This document shows, one piece after another, positions 1-63,985 of a stretch of DNA of 64,000 nt. The first letter of the stretch is position 1. Each line of letters starts with the position of its first letter. A program made the translations under genes and the position numbers. The stretch is taken from NCBI GenBank assembly GCA_002898395.1, contig BEHE01000003.1, positions 55,519 to 119,518 of the forward strand, given 5' to 3'. The notes under the pieces were generated by a model. It was not told the origin of the DNA and ran no database searches. It saw nothing but the letters and a program-made list of their open reading frames with translations. Source of the stretch: Candidatus Calditenuaceae archaeon HR02 (GTDB lineage: Archaea > Thermoproteota > Nitrososphaeria_A > Caldarchaeales > Calditenuaceae).

Positions 1-408
1 CAGCTCCACAAGATATCCCACACCACCATACTCCTTTGGATGATATACGACGCCCGGCGACCTGAACTTATTCACATTATAGGCCGTGACCACAGTGTAT
101 CTGAGGTCTCCAGCCTCTCCGTGGTCGCCCGTCGTAACAAACACTTTAGACCTGCATGAGACGCTCACGAGCCCTGACATACAGTTTTTCGCAGCTACTA
201 TAGTTGTTCTCTCTGGAGAGGTTACTTTTGCTAGGTCATTGGCCGAGAGGTGGTCGAAGTGGTCGTGCGTAATGAATACTACATCTGCCGCCATCTTGGT
301 CTTAGTCTTGAGCTGGTAGGGGTCAAACACTACCTCGCGGCCGCTCCAGCGGATGCTGAAGCCCGCGTGGCCAAGCCATCTTATCTCAAGCCCCTTGTAT
401 ACCAGCAT
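1..408 (-). CDS. MBL-fold metallo-hydrolase (runs off window start)
   Basis: Manual translation MLVYKGLEIRWLGHAGFSIR...VVFDPY...DVVFITHDHFDHL with the HxHxDH motif; absent from the ORF track. Confidence 0.85.
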   Translation of the reverse strand, partial: MLVYKGLEIRWLGHAGFSIRWSGREVVFDPYQLKTKTKMAADVVFITHDHFDHLSANDLAKVTSPERTTIVAAKNCMSGLVSVSCRSKVFVTTGDHGEAGDLRYTVVTAYNVNKFRSPGVVYHPKEYGGVGYLVEL

Positions 409-4435: not shown

Positions 4436-4527
4436 ACGTGAGAAAAGTCTGCGTCTCCCATTTTTAAATCCTTCCCAGACCGCCGCCTCATAGATACTGC
4501 TATATCCCTCTAATCTGGTTTTTCTGT

Positions 4528-6021
4528 GTGTGCGCGAAGTATTCTCTGGGCTCTGAGTTTAAGTTTGGCTTTTCAACTGTAGGCGTGCAGCATGAGATGG
4601 GTGTCCCGGGCTCTGAGTTCAGCTCCGACTGGGTTGCCTGGCTTCATGACCCGGAGAACATACTAGCTGGGATTGTGAGCGGCGACGCTCCCGAGGATGG
4701 GCCTGGATACTGGAGGCTTTTCAGAGAGGACCATGAAAGAGCGCGGAGCATCGGAATGGATGCGGCTTGGATAACGGTCGAGTGGGCGAGGATATTCCCA
4801 AGGCCGACCTTTGATGTGAAGGTACCTATGGAGAAGGCTGGCAGAGTCATTACCCGGGCCTTAGTTGAGAGGAAGCATTTAGAGGATCTTGAGAGGATAG
4901 CCGACATGCAAGCGCTCAACCACTACAGGGAGATACTCTCTGACTGGAGGAGCAGGGGCGGCCTCGTAATCGCAAATCTCTTCCACTGGTCCCTACCACT
5001 CTGGCTCCACGACCCTATCAAGGTGAGGAAGCTTGGGCCTGACCGGGCGCCATCCGGCTGGATTGATGAGAGGTGCGTCACAGAGTTCGCCAAGCTCTCA
5101 GCATTTCTAGCCCACCACCTAGATGACGTGGTTGACATGTGGTATACGATGAACGAGCCACTTGTCATCGCCAACGCGGGCTATCTCCAAGTAAACTCTG
5201 GATTCCCACCCGGTTATCTCGACCTAGAGACCTTTATGACTGTCATCAAAAATCTCGAGATGGCGCATGCAGTCGCCTACGACGCTGTAAAGAGCTATTC
5301 TAAGAAGCCTGTCGGCGTGGTGGAGTCGGTGGCCCACTGAACCCCCTTAACAACCGAAGACCAGGCCGCGGCAGATAGGGGCTTCGAATTTAACATCGCG
5401 ATATATGATGCGGCTGTGAGGGGGCTTGTAGGTGGAGAGGTTGTTGACGAGGCTCGAAATAGGATTGACTGGATTGGTCTCAACTACTATTCCAGAATGG
5501 TTGTTAAGGCTGAGAGTAGGTCGCCCACAGGGTTTAGGATTGTTAGCGGCTATGGCTATGGCTGCCAGCCTAGAGCATACTCGCTCGATGGGAGGCCAAC
5601 AAGTGATTTCGGTTGGGAGGTTTACCCAGAGGGTCTCTACCACGTGGCTAAAAGGCTCTACGGCCGCTATCGATTACCAATCTACGTGACTGAGAATGGG
5701 TGTGCGGACTCTGAAGACCGTCTAAGACCAAGGTTCATTGTCTCACACCTTTACCAGATATACCTCGCCAAGAGAGAGGGTGTGGATTTGCGGGGATACT
5801 TTCACTGGAATCTTACCGACAACCTGGAGTGGGCGAAGGGGTATAGCATGAGGTTTGGGCTATTTGAGGTTGACATGTCTTCTAAGAAAAGATTCGCTAG
5901 GCCTAGCGCTTTGGTCTTCAGGGAAATAGCCACCTCCAAGGCGATACCTGAAGAGTTTGAGAACATCACTCATCCCCCGTCGAGAAGAAATAGATGCCCC
6001 GTTCACACAGATATTTGTTAG
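4528..6021 (+). pseudogene. GH1 beta-glycosidase (LacS/CelB type) interrupted by one in-frame TGA at 5338-5340
   Basis: Both ORF halves are in one frame; TMNEP acid/base motif, IGLNYY, VTENG nucleophile, DNLEW..G motif. Confidence 0.85.
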
Positions 6022-6389: not shown

Positions 6390-7140
6390 GCATCAGGACA
6401 CTAGCATCGCTGAGACTGAATAACCCGCTTCTAAGCAGGGGGCTAACACCCCTACCCCCCCTTAGGAGCTGTGAGAGCTCTACCCCCTGTAGGGCATTGT
6501 TAAAGTGAGGCATGACGAGAAGTGTGACCTGACGCCTACGCCGCGCTGTGAGGGCTCCACCCATCTTACTCGAAAGCACTTTGACGACCCTGCTTCCAGA
6601 TGCTTTCATCATCAGGAATACCTTCCGCCTCGAACCCGGCTCACGCGCCAAGCTAATCACAGGGTGTGTATGCCCTATTATTATGATCTTGGCGTCTGCT
6701 GCCTGGGGTGGAGGCCAGCAGTGGCCGTGAAGCATCCATGCCTCTCCGATCCTTATTCCCCGCCCCGAGACCACTTTAGCCATATCGCCGGCAAGGTTCA
6801 TTATGCCCGCATCATGGTTTCCAGGCGTAATTATGATTTCTCTTACCCTTGCTTTCACGGAGTGTAACAGATCTACCACCTGTCTAGACTCTCTCCAGCT
6901 AACTCCAGCCACCCTGTGCTTCACGTCTCCGAGAAGAACAAGGGCGTCCGCTCTATGATCCTCTAGGAGCTTCAGGAGCCTCTCGAGTATGTTGGGGAGC
7001 TGGTTGGGGAAGTGTATGTCTTCACGAGCAAGCTCCACCTCGTATCCAAGGTGCAAGTCCGAGACAATCAGGTATTTCTTACCACCGCTCTCTAAGACAA
7101 TCGCTGCCTCGTCTCCAGGGAAATTCAGCATCACTGGCAA
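6331..7140 (-). CDS. Calcineurin-like metallophosphoesterase (COG1407-like)
   Basis: SDLHLG, LGDVKH, PGNHD, LHGH, GHTHP motifs. Confidence 0.9.
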   Translation of the reverse strand: MPVMLNFPGDEAAIVLESGGKKYLIVSDLHLGYEVELAREDIHFPNQLPNILERLLKLLEDHRADALVLLGDVKHRVAGVSWRESRQVVDLLHSVKARVREIIITPGNHDAGIMNLAGDMAKVVSGRGIRIGEAWMLHGHCWPPPQAADAKIIIIGHTHPVISLAREPGSRRKVFLMMKASGSRVVKVLSSKMGGALTARRRRQVTLLVMPHFNNALQGVELSQLLRGGRGVSPLLRSGLFSLSDASVLMLDGSRLGSVDWCVRSRELW

Positions 7141-7169
7141 GAGAATGATGTATTTGGGGCTGTTTATCC

Positions 7170-8300
7170 TTAGCGCTTCTGTAGCTCGGCAAGCCTCTCG
7201 GGTAGGAAGTCCTTCACAATGAACTCGAGCCCATATCTCGAGAAGGCCTCCAGCTCGGCCTTCCGCTTAATCTTTCCGAAGAACTGGACCTCACGCCTCC
7301 ACGGGTCCACCGTATATCTCGGGTCCTGCTCAAGTTCCCTGAGCCTCTTAAGGTCCTGCTCCGTCAGCCTCATCGCAGGCAGCCTATACTTTGTGATGTC
7401 TGTAGCGTATACTCCTGCCCATACCGCGTCCGGAACATTTATCTCCCTAATATGCGCGGATAGGGCCGACCCGTGGATAAGTACGCTAGCTATGTGGACA
7501 CCGTAAGGATCGGCATCCGTAAATATGTATACTGGCAAATTCAGCTCCTCTCTGAGTCTCCGTATAAGTTTTCTACAGTTCCTTGGCGACTGTCCCGCCG
7601 TGTGAATGAGGAGCGCCTTGAACTTCTTATCAGCCCTCTCCTCAACGAACCTGCTGAACACAGCACCCTTCTCTATCACGAAGACCTGCTCCGCCCCGCA
7701 TTTCACGAACTCGGACGTCGTCAATGCCGGCCCGATCGCGTAGCCGTCTGGATGCGTGGACAGGTCAACCCTCTGACCCCTAAAACCCGGTACCGTGTAC
7801 TCAATAACTAAGTCGCCGTATATAGAGGCCCTCTCTTCAGGGAAGATATTCATGTCTTCTCTTGGATGGTTGATGAGGCTCTCCACCTCCATGATTATGT
7901 CGTCGCTCTCGTCTTGAGACTCGAAATCTATTCCTTCACCTATTGCGACATAGTATGTATCCCTAAGCGTTGATGTCTTACCATTTGTTAAGAGCTGTTT
8001 TGCGAATTTAGACACCCAGATGAGCTGGGCGAAGGGTCTCAAATGCCGGATATTTGCTACAGTCCTCTCCGCCTTCTTAGAGCCCAGAACATATTGGCGT
8101 AGACTGTGGTCGTAGACTATGTTCTTGGTGCTTCTCACCGGGAGGTAGAGGGTTGGCCAATCACCCCTATTGAGGGCCTCCACAACCTCCTCGCCTATCC
8201 TTTTCAGCTTGGCTAAGACCGCCCTTTTCACCTCGTCAGACTTGTAGTGCTGCCCCACTCTACCTTCGGTCCCAGCAGTCTCGCCACGCTTCTTGGGCAC
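7170..8300 (-). CDS. top6A: DNA topoisomerase VI subunit A
   Basis: TLRDTYY catalytic Tyr, toprim IEK and DADPYG, KAELEA. Confidence 0.93.
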   Translation of the reverse strand: MPKKRGETAGTEGRVGQHYKSDEVKRAVLAKLKRIGEEVVEALNRGDWPTLYLPVRSTKNIVYDHSLRQYVLGSKKAERTVANIRHLRPFAQLIWVSKFAKQLLTNGKTSTLRDTYYVAIGEGIDFESQDESDDIIMEVESLINHPREDMNIFPEERASIYGDLVIEYTVPGFRGQRVDLSTHPDGYAIGPALTTSEFVKCGAEQVFVIEKGAVFSRFVEERADKKFKALLIHTAGQSPRNCRKLIRRLREELNLPVYIFTDADPYGVHIASVLIHGSALSAHIREINVPDAVWAGVYATDITKYRLPAMRLTEQDLKRLRELEQDPRYTVDPWRREVQFFGKIKRKAELEAFSRYGLEFIVKDFLPERLAELQKR

Positions 8301-20352: not shown

Positions 20353-22764
20353 TTAACCTACGCTACCACTCATCTCAAGCTCTATGAGCCTGTTAAACTC
20401 TATCGCATACTCCATAGGGAGCGTTTTTGTGAAACTCTCCAAGAATCCGAGCACTATCATATTTAGGGCGTCCTGCTCAGGAATTCCCCTGCTCATCAAA
20501 TAGAAGATCTGGTCCTCACCTATCTTGCCCACAGTGGCCTCGTGCGTAACTGTAGCATCGTCCTCGTGGATCTCGTTGTAGGGGTAAGTATCTGTTCTGG
20601 ACCTGTCATCGAGTATGAGTGCATCACATCTAACACTCGACTTCACACGCTTAGCTCCCTTCGCGACGTGAAGCAAGCCCCTATAAGATGTCCTGCCCCC
20701 ATCCTTGCAGACAGACTTAGAGGTTATCCGGCTGGTGGTATCCGGTGCGAGGTGGATTGCCTTGGCACCCGTGTCTTGGTGCTGGCCTCTGCCCGCAAAG
20801 GCTACCGAGAGGATTTCAGCCCGAGCCCCGCGGCCCAGTAGATAGACGCTCGGATACTTCATCGTAACCTTGCTGTTGTGGACTATCATTCCTTGTGCTA
20901 TGAAGTTGGCCGTTCCTTCAACCTCTATATCATATGTTTTCTTTTCACCCGCTGGTTCTATCTTAATAACAGGAACGAAGTATACCTCTGTATCTGGTAT
21001 TTGATCGCTGAAGTATAGGAAGTAGTGGGTATAAGTTTTCTTCCTCCTACCTAATGGCTTTTTCTCCTTTCTCTGCCATTTACTTATTTTAAGCGGGTTA
21101 AGACCACACGTGATGGCAAGCAGCTTGGTGTCCTCTAGCAATTTCTTATTAACGCTACATACGCTGAGGTTTTTATGCCCCGACCTCACATAACCATCTG
21201 CTGCTATGTAGCCTTGTATTAATGCGAGCTTCTGTGAACGAGGTAGTTTAAAGACCCATTTCGGTATCCTCTTTTCTCTAGCTTTTTTGGCTAGGCCTAG
21301 TGATGTTAAGAACATGGCTAAGTTTTTAGAATTAACTCTTAAGACGTTTCCCTGTCGCTTAGCATCTACCCCGAATATCTCACTAAGTAATGTTTTAACA
21401 CGCTTAGCCGCTGGATCATTCTCCGCAACCGCAAAGCATACACGACCCTCACCGTCTAGATATCCATCACCTAAGTAGAATCCGATTAACCACATAAGGT
21501 CGTCTGTTGTTTCAGGGGGCCATTTTATTGGCTTAGCATTTACGCTTGGTTTAAAGGTAATTTTATACGGCTTGCCTTTATCTGGAATCATGCCCACCAC
21601 GCCCACTAAATCTCCTGGCTTAATATCCCTGAGCATTCTCCAGTGTAATTTAAAGAACCTGCCTTCTTTGGACAATGTCAGGAATGGGTGGTTATCAGTT
21701 GCAACGATCTCTCTGTAATTTGCTGTGGTTAGCTTATAAACGGGGCGGGGCGGATTAGACTTCTTCCCAACAACCCTTGAAGTCCTTATCCGGAGGTCGG
21801 GCCCTACAGTATAGACTAAATCACCAACCTCCACATCCCTAATCTTCTTGACATCATTATTGGTGAAGACGGCAGTTTCAGGAACCAAGCACCCTATGTT
21901 AGCGTCAACCCACTCGACAACGGCGTCCTCATACGCGAAGGCCCTCTTTGTCACGAGGTTGTAAACATCTGTGCTCCAGTTCTGGAGAGTCGTATACCTC
22001 ACATAGGCCCCCTTCATTGCAATAATCTCCACAACAGCCGAGTGTAGGCTCTCTGAACTGTAGATGGGTGCGGTGCAACCTTCTATATAATGGACTTTGC
22101 TTCCTGGCTCGGCTATTATCAGCGTCCTCTCAAATTGGCCGACATTCGCGGCATTAATCCTGAAGTATGCTTGGAGTGGAAACTCTACATGTACACCCTC
22201 AGGTACATAGACGAAACTGCCGCCGCTCCAGACCGCCGTGTTTAGGGCCGCGAACTTGTTGTCGTTTGGTGGAACGACCGTCCCAAAATACCGTTTAACA
22301 ATAGAGGGATATTCTCGAAGCGCTGTATCCATGTCGCAGAAGATGACACCCTGCTTCTCAAGCTCTTTCCTAACATTGTGGTAAACGACCTCTGAGTCAT
22401 ACTGAGCCCCCACGCCTGCGAGGAACTTTCTCTCCGCCTCGGGAATTCCCAGCCTGTCAAACGTCCTCTTTATGTATTCGGGAACCTCCTCCCAGCTCCT
22501 AAACTTCCTGTCAGTCGGGCTGACGTAGTATCTTATCTTGCCGAAGTCTAGGCTACTAAGGTCCGCCCCCCACGTAGGCATACCCCTCTCTACGAAGTAT
22601 CTGTATGCCTTGAGTCGGAGCTGAGTCATCCACTCAGGCTCATCCTTAATCCTGGAAATCTCTTCGACAACCCTCTCCGAGATTCCGGGCTGGAAAATAT
22701 ACTTGTATTCTACCTCGTCTCTGAAATTATATTTACTGTAGTCGAAGCTTATCTCTGTTGTCAT
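20353..22764 (-). CDS. sufB: Fe-S cluster assembly protein SufB (intein-containing)
   Basis: GQFERTLII, YIEGCTAP, KVTMKYPS, HEATVGKI; 464 aa after intein removal. Confidence 0.96.
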   Translation of the reverse strand: MTTEISFDYSKYNFRDEVEYKYIFQPGISERVVEEISRIKDEPEWMTQLRLKAYRYFVERGMPTWGADLSSLDFGKIRYYVSPTDRKFRSWEEVPEYIKRTFDRLGIPEAERKFLAGVGAQYDSEVVYHNVRKELEKQGVIFCDMDTALREYPSIVKRYFGTVVPPNDNKFAALNTAVWSGGSFVYVPEGVHVEFPLQAYFRINAANVGQFERTLIIAEPGSKVHYIEGCTAPIYSSESLHSAVVEIIAMKGAYVRYTTLQNWSTDVYNLVTKRAFAYEDAVVEWVDANIGCLVPETAVFTNNDVKKIRDVEVGDLVYTVGPDLRIRTSRVVGKKSNPPRPVYKLTTANYREIVATDNHPFLTLSKEGRFFKLHWRMLRDIKPGDLVGVVGMIPDKGKPYKITFKPSVNAKPIKWPPETTDDLMWLIGFYLGDGYLDGEGRVCFAVAENDPAAKRVKTLLSEIFGVDAKRQGNVLRVNSKNLAMFLTSLGLAKKAREKRIPKWVFKLPRSQKLALIQGYIAADGYVRSGHKNLSVCSVNKKLLEDTKLLAITCGLNPLKISKWQRKEKKPLGRRKKTYTHYFLYFSDQIPDTEVYFVPVIKIEPAGEKKTYDIEVEGTANFIAQGMIVHNSKVTMKYPSVYLLGRGARAEILSVAFAGRGQHQDTGAKAIHLAPDTTSRITSKSVCKDGGRTSYRGLLHVAKGAKRVKSSVRCDALILDDRSRTDTYPYNEIHEDDATVTHEATVGKIGEDQIFYLMSRGIPEQDALNMIVLGFLESFTKTLPMEYAIEFNRLIELEMSGSVG
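20875..21891 (-). mobile_element. Intein with LAGLIDADG homing endonuclease (339 aa)
   Basis: NIG|CLVPET...ATDNHPF...MIVHN|SKV junctions; WLIGFYLGDG and LIQGYIAADG motifs; visibly more AT-rich than the exteins. Confidence 0.95.
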
Positions 22765-28875: not shown

Positions 28876-29295
28876 CTAGGCCTCAAATTCCTGGAACAGC
28901 TTCTTGACAAATTCGTATGCCTCCCTAGCCATTTTAAAGGCCTCCTCCGCTTCGGCTCTACTGAAAAGAAGGTCTGCCGGGGTCATCGAAATCTCATCAC
29001 CGTACATCGCCGGCTCTCGTTTCTCTGACAGCTTCCTAGAGATTAATGCTAAACTATCAACTGGAAACCATTTCGGGAATCTGTCTTTAAACTTGATCAA
29101 CACCGGGCCTACATCGTGTTTCTTTGGATACTCTATTCCCAGAAGTCGTAGGGCTGCCTTCAATCCCAATTCGACAGACTCTTGCGAGCTTCGAATTGAG
29201 TAGGCTAGGCTTCCTCCCCTTAGCTCTCTTTCAGCAGTTTCTAGCCTTCTGGTTGACTGGTTGAGAAGAGATTTTGCGGCCTCGATATTTCTCAT
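28876..29295 (-). CDS. HEPN domain protein
   Basis: SQESVELGLKA, PKKHD, REPAMYG (RX4Y); ATGA overlap with the MNT stop. Confidence 0.88.
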   Translation of the reverse strand: MRNIEAAKSLLNQSTRRLETAERELRGGSLAYSIRSSQESVELGLKAALRLLGIEYPKKHDVGPVLIKFKDRFPKWFPVDSLALISRKLSEKREPAMYGDEISMTPADLLFSRAEAEEAFKMAREAYEFVKKLFQEFEA

Positions 29296-30041
29296 ATCTC
29301 TATCACTTCCCCAATCTTTGCGTCTGGTTTCAGTAGCCAGGCCCACTCATCCCCTGTTAGCCATATTCTCTTTGCCCCCAGCTCTCTCATTCTAGCTCGC
29401 ATTTTTTCCGCCTCTCTCTCGTATGTTCCGTCGTCGACTAAGGTTATGCCCTCCTCCACTATGTCGAGGATAATAGGCGGATGGTTTTGGAGGCTATGGG
29501 TATTTATCGGATGAAATGATATATGGGTCGATATTCCATTGTTCTCTAACCACTCTAACTCTCGGGCAACTCTGGGGGAGTATTCCACATCTACTAGTCT
29601 ATCGATAGCTTCTCCAAGCGATTTGAATGTGTCTGAAACTATCAGGAGATCTACGTCGCTGTCTAATTTTGCGCTGCCTCTGGCTACGGAGCCGAAGAGC
29701 ACGATGCTCTTTAAACCAATGTTCTCTCTCAAGGCCTCCGTGCAGAAAATTCCGACTAACCTAGAGTATCTCTGCTGTGGTATGTTTTCGAGATTTTTTA
29801 TTACTTTGCCTACGCTTAGTAGATATGTATCTGGTTCTGCAAGCCTATAGAGCCACTTTTTGGGTCTCTTTTCATGGACATATATCGCTCCCGCCTTTCT
29901 CATTCTTAGCAGCGCCACTCTTCCCGCAGCTTCACTCCCTAACATTTCTGTGATATCGTTTGAAGTGAACGTGTTTGGTCCGAATCTTCTGTAGAGCTCT
30001 GCGTATAATGCCCCGAGCTTTCTTGAGAGCCACTCAGCCAT
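29292..30041 (-). CDS. Minimal nucleotidyltransferase with N-terminal wHTH-like domain
   Basis: VLFGSVARG...SDVDLL (GSx10DxD). Confidence 0.88.
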   Translation of the reverse strand: MAEWLSRKLGALYAELYRRFGPNTFTSNDITEMLGSEAAGRVALLRMRKAGAIYVHEKRPKKWLYRLAEPDTYLLSVGKVIKNLENIPQQRYSRLVGIFCTEALRENIGLKSIVLFGSVARGSAKLDSDVDLLIVSDTFKSLGEAIDRLVDVEYSPRVARELEWLENNGISTHISFHPINTHSLQNHPPIILDIVEEGITLVDDGTYEREAEKMRARMRELGAKRIWLTGDEWAWLLKPDAKIGEVIEI

Positions 30042-35228: not shown

Positions 35229-35550
35229 GGGGTGGCGGGTAGGGCCGGGGGGCTAGCCCTCCCCTACAACCTGAAACGGGCTTAGGCAGGGGCCAGCAAC
35301 CGACTGGAAGGGGTGTCCGGCCCTCTGCACGGCCTAGACGAAGGGTGTGAGGCCGCGTCCCACCGGAGAACGGTAGGGTGCGGCGCCACGCGTAAGCGTG
35401 GCCTCCCACACCCGCATGCACCGAACCGCGTCAGGCCCGGGAGGGAGCAGCGCTAAGGTGCAGCCGGGCTGCTGGTGGGGGTGCGTGGCTGACTGAATCG
35501 TCTAGGCGCGGCAGAGGCCCCGGCCCTCGACCAGCCGGAGCCGCCACCCC
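35229..35550 (+). ncRNA. ffs: Archaeal SRP (7S) RNA
   Basis: Helix 1 GGGGTGGCGG/CCGCCACCCC; helix 8 TCAGGCCCGGGAGGGAGCAGC; GC-rich, 322 nt; TTTAAT promoter box upstream. Confidence 0.93.
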
Positions 35551-61110: not shown

Positions 61111-61269
61111 ATGCTTAGGCGGGACGACTTAGGCCCCAGAGGTTTTCAGAGCCCTGGCATAATAATGCCCTCAGACATAGAGAGGCTTGTCCGAGAGGTA
61201 ATGCTACTCAAGGAGGAAGTAAGAAAGATAAGAAAGGCCCTTGAGGAGCATGGCATCAAAGTAGAGTAG
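61111..61269 (+). CDS. Small coiled-coil protein (52 aa)
   Basis: MLRRDDLGPRG...LVREVMLLKEEVRKIRKALEEHGIKVE*. Confidence 0.55.
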   Translation: MLRRDDLGPRGFQSPGIIMPSDIERLVREVMLLKEEVRKIRKALEEHGIKVE

Positions 61270-61801
61270 GAAGGTCACTGTAGACTGCCATTATCAGGCG
61301 GACCAGCCTCCTCGTCAACTTATCCAAAGCTGCAACCTCGGCTCTGCATTTTGCTTTAGCCTCTGTCAATCTCTGCTGGGCATTTGGAGTACGACGGGTG
61401 GTACCTGGCTTGAGTATAGGGTTTACGGGAACCCTGAAAAATCTGCATACTTCGTAGAGGCTGGAGGCACTTACGCCCAAGCGGCTTGAAACCAGGCTGT
61501 AGAGGTCTATGTGCCTCGCGGCGAATAGTGGTGAAGGGTCTATCCCGTAAACCAGCATCTTGGCGGTGAGGAATGACATGCTCTTGACCTCACCCTCCCA
61601 GCTAATGTAAATGTGGCTCCTCCTTAACACCTGCTCAAGGGAGGCTAGGGCTACCTTCTCTCCCGCTAGATTCTTAATAACTCTAATCCTCTCTTTCTCG
61701 CCTAAGAGTTCTTTATATCCGATGCATAGAAGCCGGCCTTTGTCGGGGTGTGGGTCAGTCGTCTCAATTGCCAATATGAGGGTCGTCGGCCTCAGCTTCA
61801 T
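61256..61801 (-). CDS. YprB/DnaQ-like RNase H-fold exonuclease homolog, probably inactive
   Basis: LAIETT (DIET motif with D>A), LLCIG, HIDLY, SLYEVCRFF. Confidence 0.65.
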   Translation of the reverse strand: MKLRPTTLILAIETTDPHPDKGRLLCIGYKELLGEKERIRVIKNLAGEKVALASLEQVLRRSHIYISWEGEVKSMSFLTAKMLVYGIDPSPLFAARHIDLYSLVSSRLGVSASSLYEVCRFFRVPVNPILKPGTTRRTPNAQQRLTEAKAKCRAEVAALDKLTRRLVRLIMAVYSDLPTLL

Positions 61802-61902
61802 CTCCCAAGCTTGTTGAATCCACGTTAAGATTTAATCTATGTTACTGTTCTCACTTTAACATATTGGAAACACAAAACTAAGAAAAATGGGGGAGGGGGT
61901 TA

Positions 61903-62059
61903 GCCGGCGGACAACCAGCCCATCAACATCTAGGAAACCCAAACGAGGCCGGTTGTTTATGTGTTTGACATGACTGGCGAAAATGCCAGTCCGTTTATGT
62001 TAAAGACATACCGGCCCCTTGGGTTTTATCCCTGTTGCTGGGCCGGTATGCCCGCCGGC
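61903..62059 (-). ncRNA. Candidate structured RNA (long hairpin) at the 3' end of the IS110-like gene
   Basis: Nested inverted repeats 61903-28/62033-59, 61947-53/62010-16 and 61972-78/61985-91; two outer-arm mismatches become G-U on the minus strand. Confidence 0.6.
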
Positions 62060-62870
62060 CTCTGGGTCGCCCCTCGAAACATTAGCCAGACTCCCATCAA
62101 CACATCCCCCTTCTCTCTTGCTCTCGACTTATATTTACTAATTACCGCTATCGTAAGTCTTACTAATGCTTTTCGCGCCTCACGGCCATACCTCTTACTA
62201 TTCGACCGTTCTCGATACAGCTTCAAGTATCCTCGAACCCTCCCGAATGACTTACTAAAGTCAACATATGTCAATAGCTCAGCTAGAGAGGCTCTAGCCA
62301 ATACATGGTTATCCCCTGTTATTCCGAGCTCTTCAGCAATTTCTTTGAAGATTGGGTATCTCTCCCCGGCCTCCTCTGAGATCATCTTCGCCAGTATCTC
62401 TTTCTCCGCCTCTGCCTGTCTTAACAGCCTCCTCAAACCCTCTTGTTCAGTCTGAGAAGCCGCCCTGAGCTGGTTTTCCAGCCTCCGCTTAATTCTATCC
62501 ATGCATCTGAAGACAGAAATCTTCCTCCTCATTATGAGGAAGCCTTCATCCACCCTTCTGAACCACTTATCCTCGATATGCATTAACACTTTCACATCAC
62601 CTCGCCCAGACTTTGGAATACCCAGTCTTCGCCGCATCTCCTCTATCAGTGTTAGGCGTCTGAGGCAGTATACCTCGACACCCCTCCTAAGAAGCCCAAT
62701 AAAACCATCCGTGTGGACTACTGGTATAACATCCACGAATAGCTGGTCTCTAGGGCCCGCCGGAATCTCCGTTGGAGAATTAACGTGTCTAAAGTTTCAC
62801 CATCCATTGTATAGGTTATCCTGTAGCCTGAGTCATCCTTTTTCCTGTGGACGTCACAGTAGAACCTCAT
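62026..62870 (-). mobile_element. Compact IS110-like recombinase/Tas-like gene with a frameshift near 62796
   Basis: Joined reading MRFYCDVH...QLFVD...PKSGRGDVKVL (RuvC/DEDD-like), coiled coil KRRLENQL, LGITG...LAELL..DF..F..V.GYL.L; about 281 aa. Confidence 0.7.
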
Positions 62871-62871
62871 T

Positions 62872-63620
62872 CTATACCACCTTCCTGAATGCTAGGACGT
62901 ATTCGTGCCATAGGTCGTGGCTGTGCCCCTTTACCGTATGGTATCTAGCTAGGCCGCTGTTGGATAGCTTGAACCTCAATGTCTCTACGTGTTTAAACCC
63001 GACAATCTCTGCCAGCTCTATTGTCAGGCCTACAAAGTCTCTCGATAGCCTGTGAAGCTTGTTGCTCCTAAAGTTCTTTAGGACTATTACTGCTAGGTCT
63101 CTATTATTGCTGGTTCTGCTTAGGCAGAGGTACATCGAGGCCAGTATCCCTAGCCACGCCGCCCTTAGGTGTCTCCCAATCATCAGTGCCAGATTCCCTC
63201 CACTGGTTATGACTAGTTTCTCAAGCCTTGGCCTGAACTCGCTGTTCACCAGCAGGCCGTATGGCGGTGAAGTTATTATGACCCTCCGCCTATCACCGTT
63301 GAGCCGTCCCCTAGGCCTTATAGCCCCATATAGACATGCCGCATTCATGCTGTAGGCGTCTAGTAGTGTGCTGTGGTTTGTCACGGCAATCATCTCTCCC
63401 AAGAGCTCTTCAACAATCTTGGCATACGTCGGCTCGACATCGTTGACTATTAGATGGTTGTTGTTTGTGAGTCTGCAGGCTATGGCGGGGATAAATCTAG
63501 GCCCCCAAAATGTGGGGAGTACCCCCCTACCCCGGCCATAGGGTCTATAACAACATCTCCAACCCCAACACATCTCCCCCAGAGATAGACAGCTAGATGC
63601 TAAACCCTAGCAGCTTTAGT
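62872..63620 (-). pseudogene. Amino-DNA methyltransferase pseudogene
   Basis: TSPPY motif IV in the ORF; motif I GDVVIDPMAGVG lies in another frame across a G6 run (63522-63527); TAG further upstream. Confidence 0.7.
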
Positions 63621-63670: not shown

Positions 63671-63985
63671 ATGCCTGTGAGCAAGAAGTATCTACTCCAG
63701 CCAGAGCTACTTGTCGGGGAGAAGCTCATACGTATCGATTTATGGATTGAGGAAGGGATACCTTGTATATCGTATAGGCCTGGGGAGAAGGCAAATAATC
63801 CACTACCAAACATCCACCCCAACTATAGGGCTGGTGATGGCTACTGCCCCAGATGCATGGTCAGCTGGGAGAGACCCATAGGTGATAAGTGCCTATACTG
63901 TGGAACAAAGCTCAGGAGGAGGTCAAGAAAGATAAATAACGGTGAGAAGAAATACATAAACCCAGAAATAGAGGATCTGGAATAG
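63671..63985 (+). CDS. Small Zn-ribbon protein
   Basis: YCPRC...KCLYCGTKLRR. Confidence 0.6.
   Translation: MPVSKKYLLQPELLVGEKLIRIDLWIEEGIPCISYRPGEKANNPLPNIHPNYRAGDGYCPRCMVSWERPIGDKCLYCGTKLRRRSRKINNGEKKYINPEIEDLE

Follow-up and report, generated by a model that had tools for sequence, protein, structure and literature searches.

The loop strands of a conserved hairpin RNA and the DNA beside it

In a window of 64,000 nucleotides (64 kb) from Candidatus Calditenuaceae archaeon HR02 (contig BEHE01000003.1), a gene that we label tas/IS110-like is followed by a long hairpin RNA whose internal loop exposes two strands, each with a variable core of nine nucleotides (N9). What is new here is that the N9 cores of each copy recur as reverse complements 27-53 nucleotides (nt) past that copy's own hairpin. 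Tentatively, and with confidence a little short of even, we read the arrangement as a compact RNA-guided cassette of the IS110 / TIGR-Tas / Nop5 superfamily in Nitrososphaerota chromosomes. Recent work connects the RNA-guided proteins of the Nop/IS110 scaffold in bridge recombinases, TIGR-Tas systems and small nucleolar ribonucleoproteins (snoRNPs), and with 282 amino acids and about 160 nt the present protein and RNA would be among the smallest such pairs. As natural guide-to-site pairs can be read from the genome, the targeting rule is directly testable.

Coordinates are those of the window, meaning this whole 64-kb stretch, unless another locus is named; the gene, the hairpin RNA and the cassette features given here lie on the minus strand:

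62026..62870 (-), tas/IS110-like gene, 282 codons in intact relatives
61903..62060 (-), hairpin RNA of 158 nt, overlapping the last 11 codons and the stop codon of the gene
61996..62004 (-), core A of the 5' loop strand, UUUAACAUA, with AUGUC (62009-62005) before and AACG after
61972..61991 (-), apical stem-loop between the candidate guide strands, 7 base pairs (bp) and a 6-nt loop, the first two pairs covarying
61958..61966 (-), core B of the 3' loop strand, AAACACAUA, with AUGUC (61971-61967) before and AACA after
61883..61887 (-), T5 run after a C-rich stretch, conserved in all copies
61868..61876 (-), site complementary to core B, 8/9, at +27..35 after the hairpin
61854..61863 (-), site complementary to core A and the preceding C, 10/10, at +40..49 after the hairpin
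63950..63961 (-), 12-mer at the far (left) edge of the cassette, agreeing at 11/12 with the B strand read as reverse complement

A pattern scan of 185,579 species genomes gave 157 matches, among which three loci encode a relative of the protein (L001, L002 and L003), each with an uninterrupted gene of 282 codons. These loci were retrieved as 12.7 kb each and, together with the window, make up the 102 kb that we searched. L002 and L003 represent a single locus in two genomes, their proteins being identical; L003 was dropped from the cognate tests, and the comparison rests on three independent copies (window, L001 and L002).

The 196 nt at 61880-62075 fold with a minimum free energy of -104 kcal/mol, against -64.5 +/- 4.5 kcal/mol for shuffled sequences (z -8.78; 0/200 as good), and the stop codon of the window gene sits in the 5' arm. 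The original prediction, a model's reading of these letters, had described a hairpin of 157 nt over the stop codon and had staked its case on finding it in homologues; the hairpin measures 158 nt (62060-61903), and the same structure stands 3' of the gene in all three homologous loci. The RNAalifold consensus of the three distinct sequences has 62 pairs, with 95.7% of 185 cells paired and 7 compensatory pairs, and 1 of 500 column shuffles reaches either value; when the partners were slid by 1-3 columns as a control, 29-51% of the cells were paired, with 0-1 compensatory pairs. Three invariant G.U pairs show that the gene-sense strand is the folded one. The consensus comprises a long, sequence-conserved lower closing stem of about 50 bp, an internal loop that is symmetric (11 x 11) and, at the apex, a 10-bp stem capped by a loop of 6 nt. 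Elsewhere it has small bulges only, and the two-loop layout of a bridge RNA is not seen. The proportion of synonymous differences (pS) falls from 0.68-0.81 across the gene, where it is saturated, to 0.19-0.55 in the codons under the hairpin, showing that the nucleotide sequence itself is under selection there; over its 158 nt the hairpin is conserved far above synonymous sites. The T5 run at 61887-61883, which had been noticed as a U-rich tract at about 61881-87, probably marks the 3' end of the RNA, as an oligo-T terminator.

No Rfam family matched the hairpin, at the gathering threshold or at E <= 10, and the signal recognition particle (SRP) RNA and other Rfam RNAs were rejected as identities on that ground. 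An H/ACA RNA was likewise rejected, with neither an ACA box nor a K-turn present. The consensus of box C/D is RUGAUGA / CUGA; no C/D or C'/D' boxes with K-turns were seen on reading the sequence, and no such family was matched in Rfam at E <= 10. With a covariance model built on the inner 105 positions (R1), each locus yields a single unit: its 8 matches at E <= 10 are the 4 known copies and their opposite strands, with no further copy in the 64-kb window or the three 12.7-kb loci, and blastn agrees.

Both loop strands read AUGUC-N9-AAC(R) in each of the three distinct copies. In each box, UGU is paired with AC(R) of the opposite strand, which gives the loop a like appearance at its two ends. 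Within every copy both loop positions have identical boxes, and the N9 cores vary between copies (L001, A CUGUUAUAU and B UAGUUUAUA; L002, A AUGUUAUAA and B CCAACCUUU). The twin 18-nt strands that had been proposed are present as written, on either side of the 7-bp apical stem. A helix between the two strands, raised at the same time as a caveat, forms in the window copy only; it is absent from the L001 and L002 folds, its place in the consensus is taken by the 11 x 11 loop, and it was rejected as a family feature.

The cognate sites are found on the RNA-sense strand, 3' of the hairpin and of its conserved C-rich/T5-6 tail. In the window, the reverse complement of core B (rcB, 8/9 at +27..35) is followed by CCAA and by the reverse complement of core A (rcA, 9/9 at +40..48), the latter being the sole exact match to the core A 9-mer in the 64 kb. 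L001 has rcB (9/9) at +38..46, a site that shares bases with a 7/7 match to the initial portion of A (rcA 7/9), and L002/L003 have rcA (8/9) at +45..53, with rcB at 6/9. The complementarity ends at the borders of the 9-nt cores and leaves the boxes unmatched. When at most one mismatch was allowed within 120 nt 3' of the hairpin, 4 of the 6 cognate tests gave a match versus 1 of 24 non-cognate ones. Summed duplex energies were -16.3, -17.2 and -17.5 kcal/mol for the cognate pairs, against -6.7 to -9.2 kcal/mol for the six non-cognate pairs, and shuffled flanks reached the observed energy in 0/1000, 0/1000 and 6/1000 cases; the summed best match of 26/27 was reached by 0/5000 shuffles. Over a wider range (-1800..+900, both strands, 12 tests) we counted 10 Watson-Crick matches of at least 8/9, versus about 3.5 expected by arithmetic, and 4 of these 10 fall at +27..+53 on the RNA-sense strand. 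Since the cores match their own neighbouring DNA, and do so better in cognate than in non-cognate pairs, the loops track the neighbouring DNA, as guides do. The original prediction had hinged on this very point, a loop that changes with its flanks as opposed to an invariant one, and the cores do differ between copies and covary with the DNA just downstream.

Further matches lie at the edges of the cassettes. At the left edge of L001, CTGTTATATA at 5413 carries core A in sense (10/10), with ATGTC before it, left of the zinc-ribbon gene; at the right edge, TATAAACTA at 6938 is the complement of core B (9/9), right of the RNA. The left match ends in TATA and the right one starts with TATA, and joined they give the inverted repeat CTGTTA-N7-TAACAG. 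The uninterrupted empty site, ...CTGTTA-TATA-AACTAACAG..., would then have been one inverted repeat. In the IS110 rule, as given in PMC11208160, the 5' side of the loop pairs with the left bottom strand and the 3' side with the right top strand, with the core in both. L001 fits this rule at both edges; the window fits at its right flank (8/9), its left flank lying beyond the window, and L002/L003 do not fit. As the edge geometry of L001 is like that by which an IS110 bridge RNA holds its target, we regard the cassette as a site-specific mobile element, or as what is left of one. A second rcA match, exact over 10 nt, is found in L002/L003 at 7420-7429, where gatD (6934-7431) is truncated: the gene is shortened to about 165 codons, exactly at that sequence. 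Searches for TIGR-type tandem and other two-spacer targets (gaps of 0-2 nt) gave scattered matches only, with 2-4 mismatches, and no unoccupied IS110-type target (A overlapping rcB) with at most 2 mismatches was present in the 102 kb.

We give hardly any credence to the view that the hairpin is an ordinary strong terminator, or a palindromic DNA relic, behind an unrelated coiled-coil protein and that its loops match the flanks by chance. The AU-richness of the loops would suit it, as would the overlap of two matches (L001 5413 and L002 7420) with likely TATA boxes of neighbouring genes and the number of independent copies, which is three only. Against it stand the conservation of 158 nt far above synonymous sites, the symmetric boxes, the clean separation of cognate from non-cognate and shuffle controls, and the conserved position of the sites at +27..+53.

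It is also improbable, in our judgement, that the loops are not guides and that a read-through 3' tail (5'-rcB-linker-rcA-3') pairs with both loop strands in a pseudoknotted four-helix structure, with a role in mRNA stability, termination or translation control of the gene. Such a fold would account for both complements lying on the RNA-sense strand, in an order and at a spacing that let one strand pair with both sides of the loop over the base of the apical stem, and for the covariation of the complementary segments with the loops. It sits badly with the conserved T5-T6 run between hairpin and sites, of which L002 has three, and with the sites themselves, as L002 has the A site only and the A site of L001 spans 7 nt and overlaps that for B. 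It would leave unexplained the match in A sense at the left edge of L001, the exact L002 7420 site and the two-fold symmetry of the boxes.

The protein and the reading that we favour

Codons 1-25 of the window gene occupy 62870-62796 and the remaining 256 codons, in the other frame, 62796-62029, followed by the stop codon TAA at 62028-62026; the open reading frame (ORF) that starts at 62870 in the window has 50 codons. Because the aligned homologues have 282 uninterrupted codons, the lesion can be located exactly, as a 1-nt deletion between 62796 and 62795 that breaks the frame after codon 25, where the window has GAA-AC and the intact homologues GAAGAC or GAAGTC. The base that the original prediction had added near 62796 was therefore right to the nucleotide. 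The frameshift is either genuine or a sequencing error. Each of the two main genes of the window copy carries one, and to judge from these two lesions the copy may be inactive. A second argument for inactivity, KSG in place of KSD, was mistaken: the intact homologues have KSA, so KSG is no defect of the window copy. The protein is under purifying selection, with nonsynonymous differences (pN) of 0.22-0.27 versus pS of 0.68-0.81 and a dN/dS of about 0.08-0.15.

Kinship to IS110 and Tas is at present a lead, drawn from the language-model features of the ESM Atlas. There, PF02371 and/or PF01548 occur in 22 of the 30 nearest clusters (scores 0.95, 0.94; 183, 180 shared features), and 16 of the 30 carry both, on 19-28% of their members. 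For residues 168-282, 27 of the 30 nearest named clusters carry PF02371 (scores 0.91-0.92; 139-147 shared features). The three nearest clusters have 57, 122 and 956 members, mostly from Nitrososphaerota, and the small archaeal family that had been imagined is thus not tiny.

A homodimer was predicted with a median interface score (ipSAE, interaction prediction score from aligned errors) of 0.74 over three runs, against 0.00 for the best of three controls; among solved homo-pairs 20 of 30 attained the mark, and among single chains 1 of 23. The runs had a predicted local distance difference test (pLDDT) of 84-85 and shared at least 98% of their contacts, and the symmetric interface is formed by residues 114-168 and 50-54. 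This pass may reflect likeness, because similar dimers have been solved for Nop5, TasR and IS621. Alignment by eye places DVHRK at the first acidic residue, VDTIP at the second and KS[A/G]xxD where IS110 has KTDxxDA; towards the C-terminus it finds ELGI..G...A..LAEL..YVDFSKSF...R.YL.L.R, then a short, variable loop at the position of the IS110 P..YQSG motif, in keeping with the shortened P...SG loop noticed before. Among the domains proposed earlier, the coiled coil agrees with the predicted dimer, and for the RuvC/DEDD and Tnp/Nop parts kinship appears in language-model features only. The notion of a single-loop dual-guide RNA of an archaeal family has accordingly fared well in its RNA half, through the conserved hairpin, the varying cores and their covariation with the flanks, and its protein half stays a lead.

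We file the cassette within the IS110 / TIGR-Tas / Nop5 superfamily as a new variant, a member of neither named family. In the reading that we favour, a protein of 282 amino acids, with a putative RuvC-like N-terminus, a coiled-coil hairpin and a Tnp/Nop-like C-terminus, would form the predicted two-fold symmetric dimer and would sit on a pseudo-symmetric hairpin RNA derived from its own mRNA, at the 3' end. Each RNA half would contribute the same closing motif (AUGUC with AAC-R) and one exposed strand of 9-10 nt, and the two guide strands would base-pair with DNA. The single loop would recognise short AT-rich inverted repeats in intergenic DNA, and the zinc-ribbon gene and the intron-bearing methyltransferase-like gene would be carried as cargo.

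A number of results weigh against this reading, and the first concern the protein. Profiles of Pfam, NCBIfam, PHROGs and PADLOC gave no match to IS110, Tas or Nop5; PF01548 and PF02371 in particular were not matched at E <= 10 by the window fragment or by two intact homologues, and neither sequence nor profile searches of the PDB matched IS110, Tas or Nop5. A tblastn search with the protein gave no match in phages and 3 chance matches (E >= 0.5) in plasmids. With hhalign, against an alignment of six IS110 transposases (IS4321 of R751 and five phage-borne relatives), the probability was 0.23% (0.23-0.4% over comparisons) at an E of 0.26, and the sole aligned stretch placed KSARTD on KTDxxDA. 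The AlphaFold2 model from a three-row alignment, with a pLDDT of 48.3, is of too low a quality for a fold search, its confident part being limited to a long helical hairpin (residues about 110-170); with this model Foldseek returned coiled-coil look-alikes only, and 0 of the 500 listed matches had E <= 0.001. By eye, the third DEDD position is A or G in all copies, and the catalytic serine of IS110 has no conserved counterpart, L002 lacking the serine; lacking the third acidic residue and a conserved serine in all copies, the protein resembles TasR or Nop5 more than a recombinase.

The same holds for several features of the RNA and its sites. The RNA has one loop, unlike a bridge RNA with its separate target and donor loops. 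In a duplex scan that allowed G.U pairs (178 windows per locus), the downstream window ranks first, first and second, with G.U-rich rivals within 0.1-2 kcal/mol. The B match of L002 is G.U-rich and unconvincing, and L002 has no A-sense match in its left flank. The A and B sites lie on the same strand, an arrangement not expected from either IS110 or TIGR-Tas targeting. Since the loops are rich in AU and similar to TATA boxes, more chance matches are expected in intergenic DNA. The independent copies number only three, and L001 alone can be read at both edges, the left flank of the window copy lying outside the window. Finally, near-identical copies within a genome, a trait of IS110, are not found among the three loci from the one scan: the proteins are 55-64% identical, and hence there is no sign of recent transposition.

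Genomic contexts and comparison with known systems

The cassette occurs in four differing genomic contexts. The window copy has hflX and an RNase H-like ORF as neighbours, the L001 copy the rpS26e gene and an ATP-grasp gene, and the L002/L003 copy priL and gatD. The fourth is a truncated copy at L001 2290-2610, cut at both ends just upstream of proS, in which a zinc-ribbon remnant is left, together with the methyltransferase-like gene's 3' end and codons 1-40 of the protein gene. L001 and L003 are 56 kb apart on one contig of a Nitrososphaerota metagenome-assembled genome (MAG), and L002 lies on a contig of a Candidatus Caldarchaeum subterraneum MAG. To the left of about 7420, L002 and L003 show 3 differences in 3.1 kb, and to the right they are about 82% identical; their 100% identity is a mosaic, from which the boundaries of the cassette are not fixed. 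The cassette is probably mobile or formerly mobile. In L002, an 18-nt direct repeat (16/18) of the C-rich/T-run tail found 3' of the hairpin lies at 4468-4485 and 6901-6918, flanking ORF148, the methyltransferase-like gene, the protein gene and the RNA; it could be a cassette boundary or a generic terminator.

In several respects the cassette is like IS110/IS1111 elements with their bridge or seek RNAs (Durrant et al. 2024, PMC11208160). Its RNA lies just 3' of the gene, as in the IS1111 group; the strands of an internal loop would recognise DNA at the borders of the element itself; in L001 the left flank is the same as the 5' strand and the right flank is complementary to the 3' strand, the two matches sharing a core; copies stand in several genomic contexts, some of them decayed; and the nearest named ESM Atlas clusters carry PF01548 and PF02371. 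It differs in that its protein has 282 amino acids, compared with about 300-460 in IS110, lacks a Pfam match, the conserved serine and the third DEDD residue and has a shortened serine loop, and in that it carries extra genes and has no near-identical copies.

The resemblance to TIGR-Tas systems of the stem-loop type is also extensive. In these systems the guides lie within or overlap the tas coding sequence, with a hairpin between the spacers (Xu et al. 2026 preprint, 10.64898/2026.09.09.750476; Faure et al. 2025, PMC12045711). The cassette shares with them a small protein with a RuvC-like N-part, a coiled-coil dimer and a C-terminal RNA-binding part (here the dimer is predicted and the rest putative), two variable strands of about 9 nt, each within the same short pairing motifs in a stem-closed unit, a guide that may overlap the effector gene and a hairpin that may part the spacers. 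It is conceivable, if rather unlikely, that the cassette is an immobile, stand-alone effector of this kind, in which a TasR-like dimer with one stem-loop, tigRNA-like guide binds or cuts DNA and the nearby site is an operator, where the ribonucleoprotein (RNP) would control read-through or a neighbouring gene. Control of this kind has been shown for catalytically dead TasR and TasA repressors. The dual 9-nt spacers with matching boxes and a closing stem would favour such an effector, as would the predicted coiled-coil dimer, the cognate sites in cis and the size of the protein, 282 amino acids against 329 in PateTasR (10.64898/2026.09.09.750476).

Other features count against it or set the cassette apart from TIGR-Tas. 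The cassette is a single unit, whereas TIGR forms an array, and the covariance model found no other copy in 102 kb. Matching boxes surround each spacer as in TIGR, though their letters, AUGUC / AAC(R), differ from the published CCA/UG or CUU/UG, and the closing stem, at about 50 bp, is very long and conserved in sequence. TIGR spacers A and B pair with opposite strands of adjacent 9-bp target halves (PMC12045711), whereas here both sites are on one strand and the cognate DNA adjoins the cassette's own locus. No common regulon is apparent, because the downstream genes differ in each locus, and the decayed, scattered copies suggest a selfish element. The host DNA is a free-living archaeal chromosome, whereas CPR (candidate phyla radiation) bacteria are the only known non-viral hosts with TIGR arrays according to 10.64898/2026.09.09.750476. 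The protein has no sequence-level match to any Tas chain in the PDB; for the Nop domain of TIGR-Tas there is no profile match, and the AlphaFold pLDDT is below 50 outside the coiled coil. We found no literature specific to this archaeal family, which may already be contained in the TIGR supplementary tables (~20,000 tas loci).

Vaysset et al. infer that none of the archaeal IS110 clades in their data set gave rise to Nop5 (10.1101/2024.06.21.599552). Into that gap between IS110 and Nop5 falls an archaeal family with one dual-guide loop, a serine loop that is shortened and a methyltransferase-like gene next to its own. A bolder extension, to which we assign a distinctly low probability, is that the cassettes are a living intermediate on the way from IS110 recombinases to Tas/Nop5 scaffolds, with one loop for target and ends, same-strand pairing and a methyltransferase link. 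One two-fold symmetric loop would then recognise both the insertion target and the element's own ends, making donor and target near-identical AT-rich inverted repeats; both guide strands would pair on one DNA strand, across the base of the apical stem; and the linked, intron-containing methyltransferase-like gene may be the start of guide-directed modification. To our knowledge, pairing of both strands across the base of an apical stem is so far known only from H/ACA RNAs. If true, same-strand pairing would be a third targeting geometry in the superfamily.

Neighbouring genes and other features of the window

Two more genes belong to the cassette of the window:

62872..63573 (-), methyltransferase-like ORF, directly upstream of the tas/IS110-like gene, with an SPPYG motif and, in another frame, a GxGG motif
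63671..63985 (+), zinc-ribbon-like small ORF, divergent, also present beside the L001 copy (35% identity, E 1e-11)

The methyltransferase-like ORF of the window is 66% identical to the L002 protein; in the window as in L002 and L003, the end of the gene lies 2 nt ahead of the start codon of the protein gene, and both L001 copies keep its last about 60 nt and have lost the rest. It has the motifs DPMAGxGGT and SPPYG, the latter of the (S)PPY type, and is not fibrillarin-like, and its profile matches are sub-threshold (Pfam E 0.005-0.007, PADLOC 7e-5, PHROG 1.5e-4). AlphaFold2, from a two-row alignment, gave a pLDDT of 32.3. The gene is under purifying selection (pS 0.82, pN 0.21), and read unspliced its frame is apparently broken in every locus. 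In L002/L003 (5249-5308) the in-frame TAG lies inside a textbook BHB (bulge-helix-bulge) structure with a 16-bp exon helix, a 4-bp central helix and two 3-nt bulges, with a predicted intron at 5271-5291 (z -3.73); the predicted removal of 21 nt between the bulges would give an open frame of 296 codons, ...GIGGT|FIPAIA.... The window has the same BHB shape, with a predicted mini-intron of 22 nt at 63497-63518, after whose removal one extra G would be left in a G6 run. Spliced archaeal mRNAs are rare, cbf5 being the classic case (PMC2738675).

Archaeal box C/D small RNPs (Nop5, fibrillarin and L7Ae) are like the cassette in having a two-fold symmetric dual-guide RNA on a coiled-coil dimer and an archaeal host, and in the cassette a methyltransferase-like gene is directly adjacent. 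Unlike theirs, its RNA has no C/D or K-turn motifs and no Rfam match, its methyltransferase is of the (S)PPY type and not fibrillarin-like, and its guides match nearby DNA and not known rRNA or tRNA. By analogy with Nop5 and fibrillarin, the protein might recruit the adjacent methyltransferase-like protein to sites chosen by the guides, a proposal of RNA-guided methylation that we regard as very improbable. The abutting genes (2 nt) in the window, L002 and L003, the 3' end kept in L001 and the purifying selection on the methyltransferase-like gene speak for it, as does the precedent of Nop5, which holds fibrillarin through an inactive RuvC-like domain (10.1101/2024.06.21.599552). Against it, L001 keeps an intact protein gene and RNA without the methyltransferase, and the assignment of the latter consists of two motifs and sub-threshold matches.

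The zinc-ribbon remnant is also found in the decayed copy at L001 2290-2610. At the position that the zinc-ribbon gene takes in the window and L001, L002 has an ORF of 148 amino acids (4572-5018); in L002/L003 this ORF and the start of the methyltransferase-like gene overlap. The window has, directly downstream of the cassette, an ORF of 181 amino acids (61256-61801) with a weak match to the RNase_H_2 superfamily (PF13482, E 1.4e-4, at the cut-off), which is absent beside the other copies.

The window is archaeal chromosome, with an archaeal SRP RNA at 35233-35546 and housekeeping genes throughout. An in-frame TGA (5338-5340), which is either a nonsense mutation or a case of recoding, divides the glycoside hydrolase family 1 gene at 4528-6018 into halves that share one frame. 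A sufB/sufD-type gene at 20356-22764 contains an intein with a LAGLIDADG endonuclease domain (Pfam), and ORFs with a HEPN domain and a nucleotidyltransferase domain, the usual toxin-antitoxin-like pair, are adjacent at 28879-30041. In the homologous loci, tRNA matches over 105 nt, compared with a 71-position model, at L002 10290-10394 and L003 11096-11200 suggest an intron-containing tRNA gene.

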